From Escherichia coli (GTDB taxonomy: Bacteria > Pseudomonadota > Gammaproteobacteria > Enterobacterales > Enterobacteriaceae), in the NCBI RefSeq assembly GCF_003334335.1, contig NZ_QOWQ01000009.1: a stretch of 64,000 bases of DNA; one strand, 5' to 3'. Made by a program: the position numbers. Positions 16,701 to 19,700 of this stretch are shown here, piece by piece (position 1 is the first letter of the stretch; every line of letters begins with the position of its first letter).

Positions 16701-19700
16701 GGTTCTGCTGGGTTGTAACCGGTATGGCAGACGTGGTGGCGATCACTGCTTATGCTCAGTTCTGGTTCCCCGATCTCTCCGACTGGGTCGCCTCGCTGGC
16801 GGTGATAGTGCTGCTGTTGACGCTCAACCTTGCCACCGTGAAAATGTTCGGTGAGATGGAGTTCTGGTTTGCGATGATCAAAATCGTCGCCATCGTGTCG
16901 CTGATTGTCGTCGGCCTGGTCATGGTGGCGATGCACTTTCAGTCACCGACCGGTGTGGAAGCGTCATTCGCGCATTTGTGGAATGACGGCGGCTGGTTCC
17001 CGAAAGGTTTAAGTGGCTTCTTTGCCGGATTCCAGATAGCGGTTTTCGCTTTCGTGGGGATTGAGCTGGTAGGTACAACAGCTGCGGAAACCAAAGATCC
17101 GGAGAAATCACTGCCACGCGCGATTAACTCCATTCCGATCCGTATCATTATGTTCTACGTCTTCGCGCTGATTGTGATTATGTCCGTGACGCCGTGGAGT
17201 TCGGTAGTCCCGGAGAAAAGCCCGTTTGTTGAACTGTTCGTGTTGGTAGGGCTGCCTGCTGCCGCAAGCGTGATCAACTTTGTGGTGCTGACCTCTGCGG
17301 CGTCTTCCGCTAACAGCGGCGTCTTCTCTACCAGCCGTATGCTGTTTGGTCTGGCGCAGGAAGGTGTGGCACCGAAAGCGTTCGCTAAACTTTCTAAGCG
17401 CGCAGTACCAGCGAAAGGGCTGACCTTCTCCTGCATCTGCCTGCTCGGTGGCGTGGTGATGCTGTATGTGAATCCTAGCGTGATTGGCGCGTTCACGATG
17501 ATTACAACCGTTTCCGCGATTCTGTTTATGTTCGTCTGGACGATTATCCTTTGCTCGTACCTGGTTTACCGCAAACAGCGTCCTCATCTGCATGAGAAGT
17601 CGATCTACAAGATGCCGCTCGGCAAGCTGATGTGCTGGGTATGTATGGCGTTCTTTGTGTTCGTGGTCGTGTTGCTGACACTGGAAGATGACACTCGCCA
17701 GGCGCTGTTGGTCACCCCGCTGTGGTTTATCGCACTGGGGCTGGGCTGGTTGTTTATTGGTAAGAAGCGGGCTGCTGAACTGCGGAAATAACCGCATTAT
17801 CATGCTGGATGGCGCAATGCCATCCAGCTTTTAGATTACTCACCCGCCAGCGCGCGTGGGAACAGTACATTGTTTTCCAGACTGATGTGATCCATCAGGT
17901 CATCAATCAGTTCATTAATGCCGTTATACATCGCTTTCCAGGTGGTGCAGGCTTCTGGCGGCGGTGTGACGTTATTGGTAGTGTGTTTGATCACTTCCAG
18001 CAGTTCGCCCGCTTCATCGTGCTCGCTTTCCATTACGCTGATTGGCCCCATTGCCTGGCTGCCCATGCCTTGTTTGATCATCGGGAAGAGGATCTGCTCT
18101 TCTTTCATCATGTGGCTGGAAAGCTCTTCATGCAGCATGGTCAGGTATTTTGTCAGCCCTTTTGGCACGCTCGGTTTGTCGGCGTGAACGCGCTCGACTT
18201 TAGTCGCTTGCAGGATCAGCTCCGGCAGTTGCTCGCGGTGACGATCGTGGTAGCGCACGATGATATGGTCGATGATTTCTGCCAGCGGGGCGCTACGCCA
18301 GTCTTTCTCAATCGGTTGTTCAGCAAGCTTTGCCAGCTCAGCTTCAATGACCTCAACATCCAGTTCTTTACGTGCCGCCGCACGCGCCAGCGTTTGCTTA
18401 CCGCCGCAGCAGTAATCCATATCATATTTACGAAACAGAGCCGAAGCGCGAGGGATAGAGAGCGCCAGTTCACCTAAAGGTTGGTCGCGATAAGCCATAG
18501 CTGATACCTCATTCTTAATAAGATAAGATGTATTTTAAATGCATCTTTAAGGCAAATGCTATAACCCTTACGTAGCAGAGGCTTATTTAACTCACTGCCA
18601 GTATGTCAACTTTCTGAGACAGATTCAGTTAAAGGCTTTTCCGGTTTTGCTCTGACTGCAATGACCACGCCAACCACTAACAGCGCGATACCGCTCAGCG
18701 TCATCAGCGGCGGCATTTGCTGGCGTATCAAAAAGGTGTACAGCAAACCTGCCAGTGTTTCGAAAACGATCAGCGGCCCGAGAATCACTGTCGGTAATCG
18801 CTGGCTGGCGACGTTCCAGCAGAGTGCGCCAACCCATGAGCAAAGCACGGCTATCGCAACCATCAGACTAATAAACACCAGCGGACGGGGGCCAAAAGGT
18901 AAGGAGAAGTCCGGCGTTTGTATATTCAGCCAGTAACAGGCGACGAGATAGCCGATGAGAGAAACCGGCAGCGTGACCAGCGCCTGCGCCGTCGCCCACA
19001 TCATCGGATGTTTGTCGGGATTTTCCCGCAGCCAGCGGGCGTTGCGCAGGGCATACCATGCCCAGCAGACCACGGAAACTAACGCTAGCACGATGCCAGA
19101 GGTATAACGTGCCCAGTCAAAATCGGGGAGTCCGTGGTTTAACTCAGCAATATTCACACACGCCAGGCCGATGCCAATACAAATCAGTGCCGGGGCGAGT
19201 TTTCCCCACGCGAGTTTGCCGTCGCGCTGGCTATAAAGCAGATTGGCAAAGACAGGAATGACCACCGGCAGGGTGCCAATAATCATCGTAGAAACAGGCG
19301 CGCCAGTACGTTGAATGGCACTGGCAAGGCAGAAGTAATAGATGAGGTTGCCCATCATAGTGAGCATCAAGGCGGTAAGCCAGTCGCGACGCGCCAACTG
19401 ACGCAGACGCACGCGTCCCAGCCAGGCAATGGGTAGCGCAATTAACCCTAACGCCAGATAACGCCCCATCGACTGCAACATCGCCGGGTATTCCGGCACG
19501 ATCAACGGCCCGACAAAAATAAGCCCCCACATCAACCCTGCTAACAGGGCGTACAGCACGCCGCTAATCATTACTGGCATCCATTGGTCTGTCAGAAGAA
19601 ACGTTCAGGAAGCAGACATGATTGCTCCCGGCATCCCGTCATTATCAGAGAGGATGCGGGAGGATGCCACTTTAATTAACTATTTATTAACATTAAAAAG

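Follow-up and report, generated by a model that had tools for sequence, protein, structure and literature searches.

NsrR operators and the ytfE site in described strains

In published work, an Rrf2 dimer occupies a 23-bp operator, and reaction of the protein with NO abolishes DNA binding (PMC9338935, PMC5411485, PMC11500311). A candidate NsrR site for E. coli ytfE (dnrN) was listed by Rodionov et al. (2005) as GATGCATTTAAAATaCATC at -46, and its conservation in Klebsiella, Salmonella, Erwinia and Yersinia was shown in the same work (PMC1274295). In uropathogenic E. coli CFT073, Mehta et al. reported a ChIP-seq NsrR peak at ytfE and a 69.6-fold induction of the gene, and ytfE ranks as the top 11-1-11 site of that genome (PMC5320621). 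An earlier ChIP-chip study of K-12, as cited in the CFT073 paper, also had NsrR bound at ytfE (PMC5320621). Direct NsrR control and NO induction of ytfE are stated in two further papers (PMC8593673, PMC7336997), and an NO donor elicits a response from a PytfE reporter, the promoter having served as an NO reporter in EHEC (PMC7336997).

Here, we analyzed a palindrome at positions 18525–18547 of a 64,000-nucleotide stretch of E. coli DNA, the whole of which is referred to below as the window. Read directly from the sequence, the plus strand carries AAGATGTATTTTAAATGCATCTT, which reads AAGATGCATTTAAAATACATCTT on the minus strand, the strand of ytfE; the 19-bp core of this 23-mer is the site GATGCATTTAAAATaCATC of Rodionov et al. 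Sequence, weight matrix, identity to K-12, literature and conservation all point the same way, and we regard the element, with very little doubt, as the NsrR operator of ytfE. It is the canonical NsrR–ytfE site, already known, in its K-12-type majority allele, and the element itself holds nothing new. The literature on the K-12 ytfE operator reportedly also includes Bodenmiller & Spiro (2006) and Partridge (2009). In this account, the sequence, motif strength, K-12 identity, position and conservation were computed by us; NsrR binding, repression, NO induction and the cluster chemistry are taken from published work.

A repeat finder resolved the operator into two 11-nt arms, the ATG-proximal one at 18525–18535 and the ATG-distal one at 18537–18547, which are complementary at 10 of 11 positions (91%) and separated by a 1-nt spacer. 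The sole mismatch is the T at 18531, where a C would yield a perfect palindrome; this is a base that the published consensus, gATGyAT-N5-ATrCATc, leaves degenerate (y/r). The enterobacterial 11-1-11 NsrR operator consists of two inverted 11-bp matches to AAGATGCATTT with a 1-bp spacer, and both half-sites are found here, with 21 of the 22 consensus positions in agreement. The near-perfect 23-bp palindrome and the match to the NsrR consensus, both claimed in the initial annotation, are therefore exact as described.

The ytfE coding sequence lies on the minus strand at 17836–18498 and encodes a 220-aa di-iron iron-sulfur cluster repair (RIC) protein, as supported by the open reading frame, the RefSeq annotation and a full-length match to the NCBIfam equivalog model NF008221 (416.7 bits, cut-off 254); TIGR03652 is matched as well (268.7 bits, cut-off 204.7). 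The product is WP_000331456.1, the same RefSeq protein as in K-12. A Shine-Dalgarno sequence, GAGG, can be read at 18507–18510 on the minus strand, 8 nt before the ATG, and GAGGTA is conserved at this place in an anchored alignment of 80 species. The ytfF reading frame (18606–19580) lies on the same strand as ytfE and is separated from it by an intergenic region of 107 bp, within which the operator ends 26 nt before the ytfE ATG. The earlier description of the palindrome as sitting just upstream of ytfE thus stands, with the clarification that ytfE runs on the minus strand, and the identity of the gene, which places the operator in the promoter of a nitrosative-stress regulon gene, is upheld by NF008221.

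Compared with the described operators, the closest is that of K-12, which resembles the window in the 23-mer, the distance to the ATG and the YtfE protein; the operator is identical base for base to that of MG1655, with no difference inside it. The CFT073 operator occupies the same locus with the same architecture, but forms a perfect palindrome, AAGATGCATTTAAAATGCATCTT, whereas the window has A, not G, at operator position 17. The E. coli hmp, hcp, ygbA and yeaR operators share with ytfE the 11-1-11 motif, the promoter-proximal position and a repression relieved by NO. They are, however, more degenerate (20–26 bits vs 30 for ytfE here), and their central base is variable, whereas ytfE orthologues have a fixed A. 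More distantly, the ScNsrR–hmpA1 complex (PDB 7B0C) and other Rrf2 operators such as IscR–hya likewise involve a 23-bp pseudo-palindrome, a [4Fe-4S] Rrf2 dimer and binding that is lost with NO, but the ScNsrR–hmpA1 half-site, AACACGAATAT..., differs from that of ytfE.

Motif strength, conservation and rival readings

To score the site independently of ytfE, we took the 25 distinct NsrR sites of other genes that Table 4 of the CFT073 ChIP-seq paper lists (PMC5320621) and derived a symmetrised weight matrix from them. With this leave-ytfE-out matrix the operator reaches 30.17 bits, above every one of the 25 training sites, and it is the top hit of the scan, the runner-up in the 64-kb window scoring 16.94 bits. 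In 200 Markov-random windows, the per-window maximum averaged 13.9 bits and never exceeded 24.07. By the exact score distribution, a hit of this strength has P = 6.7e-13 at each position, so that about 3e-6 of them would be expected in a 4.8 Mb genome, and a search for the 23-mer in 100 dinucleotide shuffles, allowing up to 3 mismatches, returned 0 matches.

A separate candidate, a second NsrR site at 62956–62978 scoring 16.9 bits, was rejected: it corresponds to an ARG-box pair between argI and rraB, and about four such scores are expected per genome by chance. The segment belongs to the divergent argI–rraB intergenic region and contains an AT-rich palindromic pair, AATGAATTAAAATTCAAT / TATGGATGATTATTCATT, that resembles ArgR ARG boxes.

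Next, conservation was assessed in a comparative set of one genome per species, which yielded 80 ytfE loci and covers 19 or more named genera of the Enterobacteriaceae. An NsrR site of at least 24.8 bits is present in all 80 loci, 24–27 nt before the ATG, with a spacing of exactly 26 nt in 63 of them. When the 77 loci from outside Escherichia are compared with the window, the 23-mer shows 94% identity, as against 62% at the third codon position of ytfE and 28% in the distal upstream region. By this comparison, the operator is conserved about as strongly as the first and second codon positions of ytfE.

These data bear on three other explanations of the palindrome. Its main occupant might be a regulator other than NsrR (Fur, FNR, CRP or the Rrf2 paralogue IscR, for instance), the resemblance to the NsrR motif being secondary. 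AT-rich palindromes can look like Fur boxes, and in an anaerobic Salmonella fur mutant ytfE was 10-fold up, with a putative Fur motif listed, albeit without direct-binding evidence (PMC3212961). Yet nothing upstream of ytfE matches the 19-bp Fur box at more than 11/19, the best match that overlaps the palindrome reaching 10/19, and the window contains 418 matches of exactly 11/19; the FNR and CRP consensus sequences agree at no more than 7 of 10 positions, and do so away from the palindrome. At the palindrome, none of the three consensus sequences exceeds background. Set against 21 of 22 NsrR 11-1-11 consensus positions, in what is the best-scoring NsrR site known, this makes a primary role for another regulator very improbable.

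The inverted repeat might instead act in RNA, as a terminator hairpin of ytfF or a structured element of the ytfE leader, as its location, on the strand of ytfF and 58 nt beyond the end of that gene's stop codon, could suggest. The predicted RNA hairpin, however, amounts to only -3.0 kcal/mol, is AT-rich and has no T-run after it, and a terminator scan of 18350–18750 found nothing. The window has three further inverted repeats of the 11-1-11 form with no more than one mismatch, at 1041, 4738 and 25107, and these are GC-rich and terminator-like, quite unlike the operator. Across species, moreover, single-arm changes break the pairing (A/T at position 14, A/G at position 17), with no compensatory changes, so that a function at the RNA level is extremely improbable. 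As for a chance AT-rich palindrome without function, the AT-richness of intergenic DNA is the one point in its favour; given the per-position P value above, the lack of matches in the shuffles and the presence of the site in 80/80 species with a constant spacing to the ATG, we give this reading no weight. The palindrome is accordingly treated below as the NsrR operator.

The three GC-rich 11-1-11 repeats lie at 1041–1063, 4738–4760 and 25107–25129. The second of them, located just past rplI and followed by a T-run, looks like an intrinsic terminator.

The -10-like hexamer and the repression step

Within the operator, positions 11–16 on the minus strand form the hexamer TAAAAT (18532–18537), a putative -10 element that matches TATAAT at 5 of 6 positions. 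No other hexamer of the intergenic region matches TATAAT at 5/6 while retaining its second-position A and final T. Among the 80 species, the hexamer is TAAAAT in 54, TAATAT in 24 and TATAAT in 2, positions 1, 2, 5 and 6 being invariant. For the centre base of the operator (position 12), the regulon matrix holds only 0.09 bit, but all 80 ytfE sites have A there. In the ScNsrR–DNA crystal structure, the central 7 bp are without base contacts, and altering them leaves affinity unchanged, although this argument rests on the Streptomyces protein, from which EcNsrR differs in several DNA-contacting residues (PMC9338935). A centre that is invariant in ytfE and uncontacted in the ScNsrR–DNA structure suggests that a further constraint acts on the same bases, and the presence of a -10 hexamer would account for it. 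The cross-species comparison thereby lends sequence-level support to the overlap of the operator with the hexamer.

Since the operator centre coincides with the -10-like hexamer, promoter occlusion is a likely mechanism. We infer that occlusion of the -10 element is probably the repression step, and that transcripts would begin close to the operator edge facing the ATG. The -35 region that would pair with TAAAAT is poor (2/6), and a built-in sigma-70 scan of 18350–18750 at a 9-of-12 threshold returned no promoter. A mapped ytfE transcription start was sought, and the supplements of two E. coli TSS studies contain no ytfE entry.

Under this mechanism, in the absence of NO a holo-NsrR dimer, an Rrf2-family protein carrying a [4Fe-4S] cluster, sits on the 23-bp palindrome with one half-site per subunit. 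Bound in this way, NsrR would cover the hexamer TAAAAT and keep RNA polymerase off the ytfE promoter. NO nitrosylates the NsrR cluster and releases the protein from DNA, whereupon ytfE is transcribed and its product can repair nitrosatively damaged iron-sulfur clusters.

The nsrR gene lies outside the 64-kb window. Strain 720632 has an nsrR gene at a distance of about 33 kb from ytfE, and its product, WP_001177639.1, is also that of K-12. This strain is closely related to the window, with 99.6% identity over positions 1–18459 and 100% over 17800–18700. The NO induction that the initial annotation predicted for the present strain is a reasonable expectation, which depends on nsrR: the strain probably carries the canonical K-12-type NsrR–ytfE module, and ytfE should respond to NO as in the strains studied.

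Allelic variation and neighbouring elements

A 901-bp segment around the operator finds a counterpart in 5417 of the 5426 complete genomes of E. coli and is 100% identical to several of them, including strain 720632, in which ytfE and ytfF are annotated. The operator with 5 nt on each side (33-bp core) is identical in 3536 of 5416 E. coli records, which makes it the majority allele; the perfect-palindrome allele, as in CFT073, occurs with the same flanks in 888 of 5417. The polymorphism at operator position 17 is thus split between the allele of the window and K-12, with about 65% of E. coli records, and the perfect palindrome, with at least 16%. By the matrix, A rather than G at this position (T rather than C at 18531) costs 0.75 bit.

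Outside the operator, a single base in the promoter differs from K-12, namely 18557, which lies upstream of the operator by 10 nt and is, on the plus strand, T here and A in K-12; beyond it, two further base changes are located near the ytfF stop codon. Of 5417 E. coli records, 1294 share a 63-bp promoter segment with the window without any difference, K-12 being one base off, and the promoter haplotype of the window at the 18557 T/A polymorphism accordingly accounts for at most 24% of records. If the operator centre doubles as the -10 element, repressor affinity and promoter strength would share bases, and the alleles at 18531 and at 18557, in the putative -35 region, could set lineage-specific basal and NO-induced levels of ytfE. 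We offer this as a speculative and rather unlikely proposal.

A second conserved promoter block, CTACGTAAGGGTTATAGC, occupies 18558–18575 on the minus strand and stands out as highly informative in the anchored 80-locus alignment. Its consensus, CCnCnAAAGGG(G/T)TATA, lies 10–24 nt upstream of the operator in the 80 Enterobacteriaceae ytfE promoters, and the AGGGGTA within it corresponds to TACYYMT, the NarL/NarP heptamer, read in reverse. The E. coli version, in which just 10 of the 14 positions agree with the NarL/NarP 7-2-7 consensus, is weaker than that of the family. Candidate NarP sites are marked in the ytfE promoter alignment of Rodionov et al. 2005 (Fig. S2; PMC1274295). Judged from these motifs, the block may be a candidate activator site of the NarL/NarP type, some 40 nt ahead of the inferred start.

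Further upstream, about 40–55 nt above the NsrR site, a CRP-like TGTGA-N6-TCACA palindrome precedes ytfE in many non-Escherichia genera, including Enterobacter, Citrobacter, Kluyvera, Lelliottia and others (among the loci numbered L012–L088 in our set; for example, at about 496–511 of L012). E. coli is without it, because the 3' end of ytfF occupies that place. Also inside the 3' end of ytfF, CAGATTCAGTT at 18620–18630 (plus strand) is the weak third 11-bp NsrR half-site motif of ytfE, which has a score of 4.07 in the CFT073 ChIP-seq table (PMC5320621).

A block of genes of about 10 kb extends over approximately 4826–14609 of the window, between rplI and ytfB. This rplI–ytfB block is not known to be part of the K-12 map. 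According to the annotation of strain 720632, it encodes a TetR/AcrR regulator, a 3-ketoacyl-ACP reductase, a sugar-phosphate isomerase and an enoyl-CoA hydratase, as well as a CoA-transferase, an FAD oxidoreductase and a TRAP transporter.
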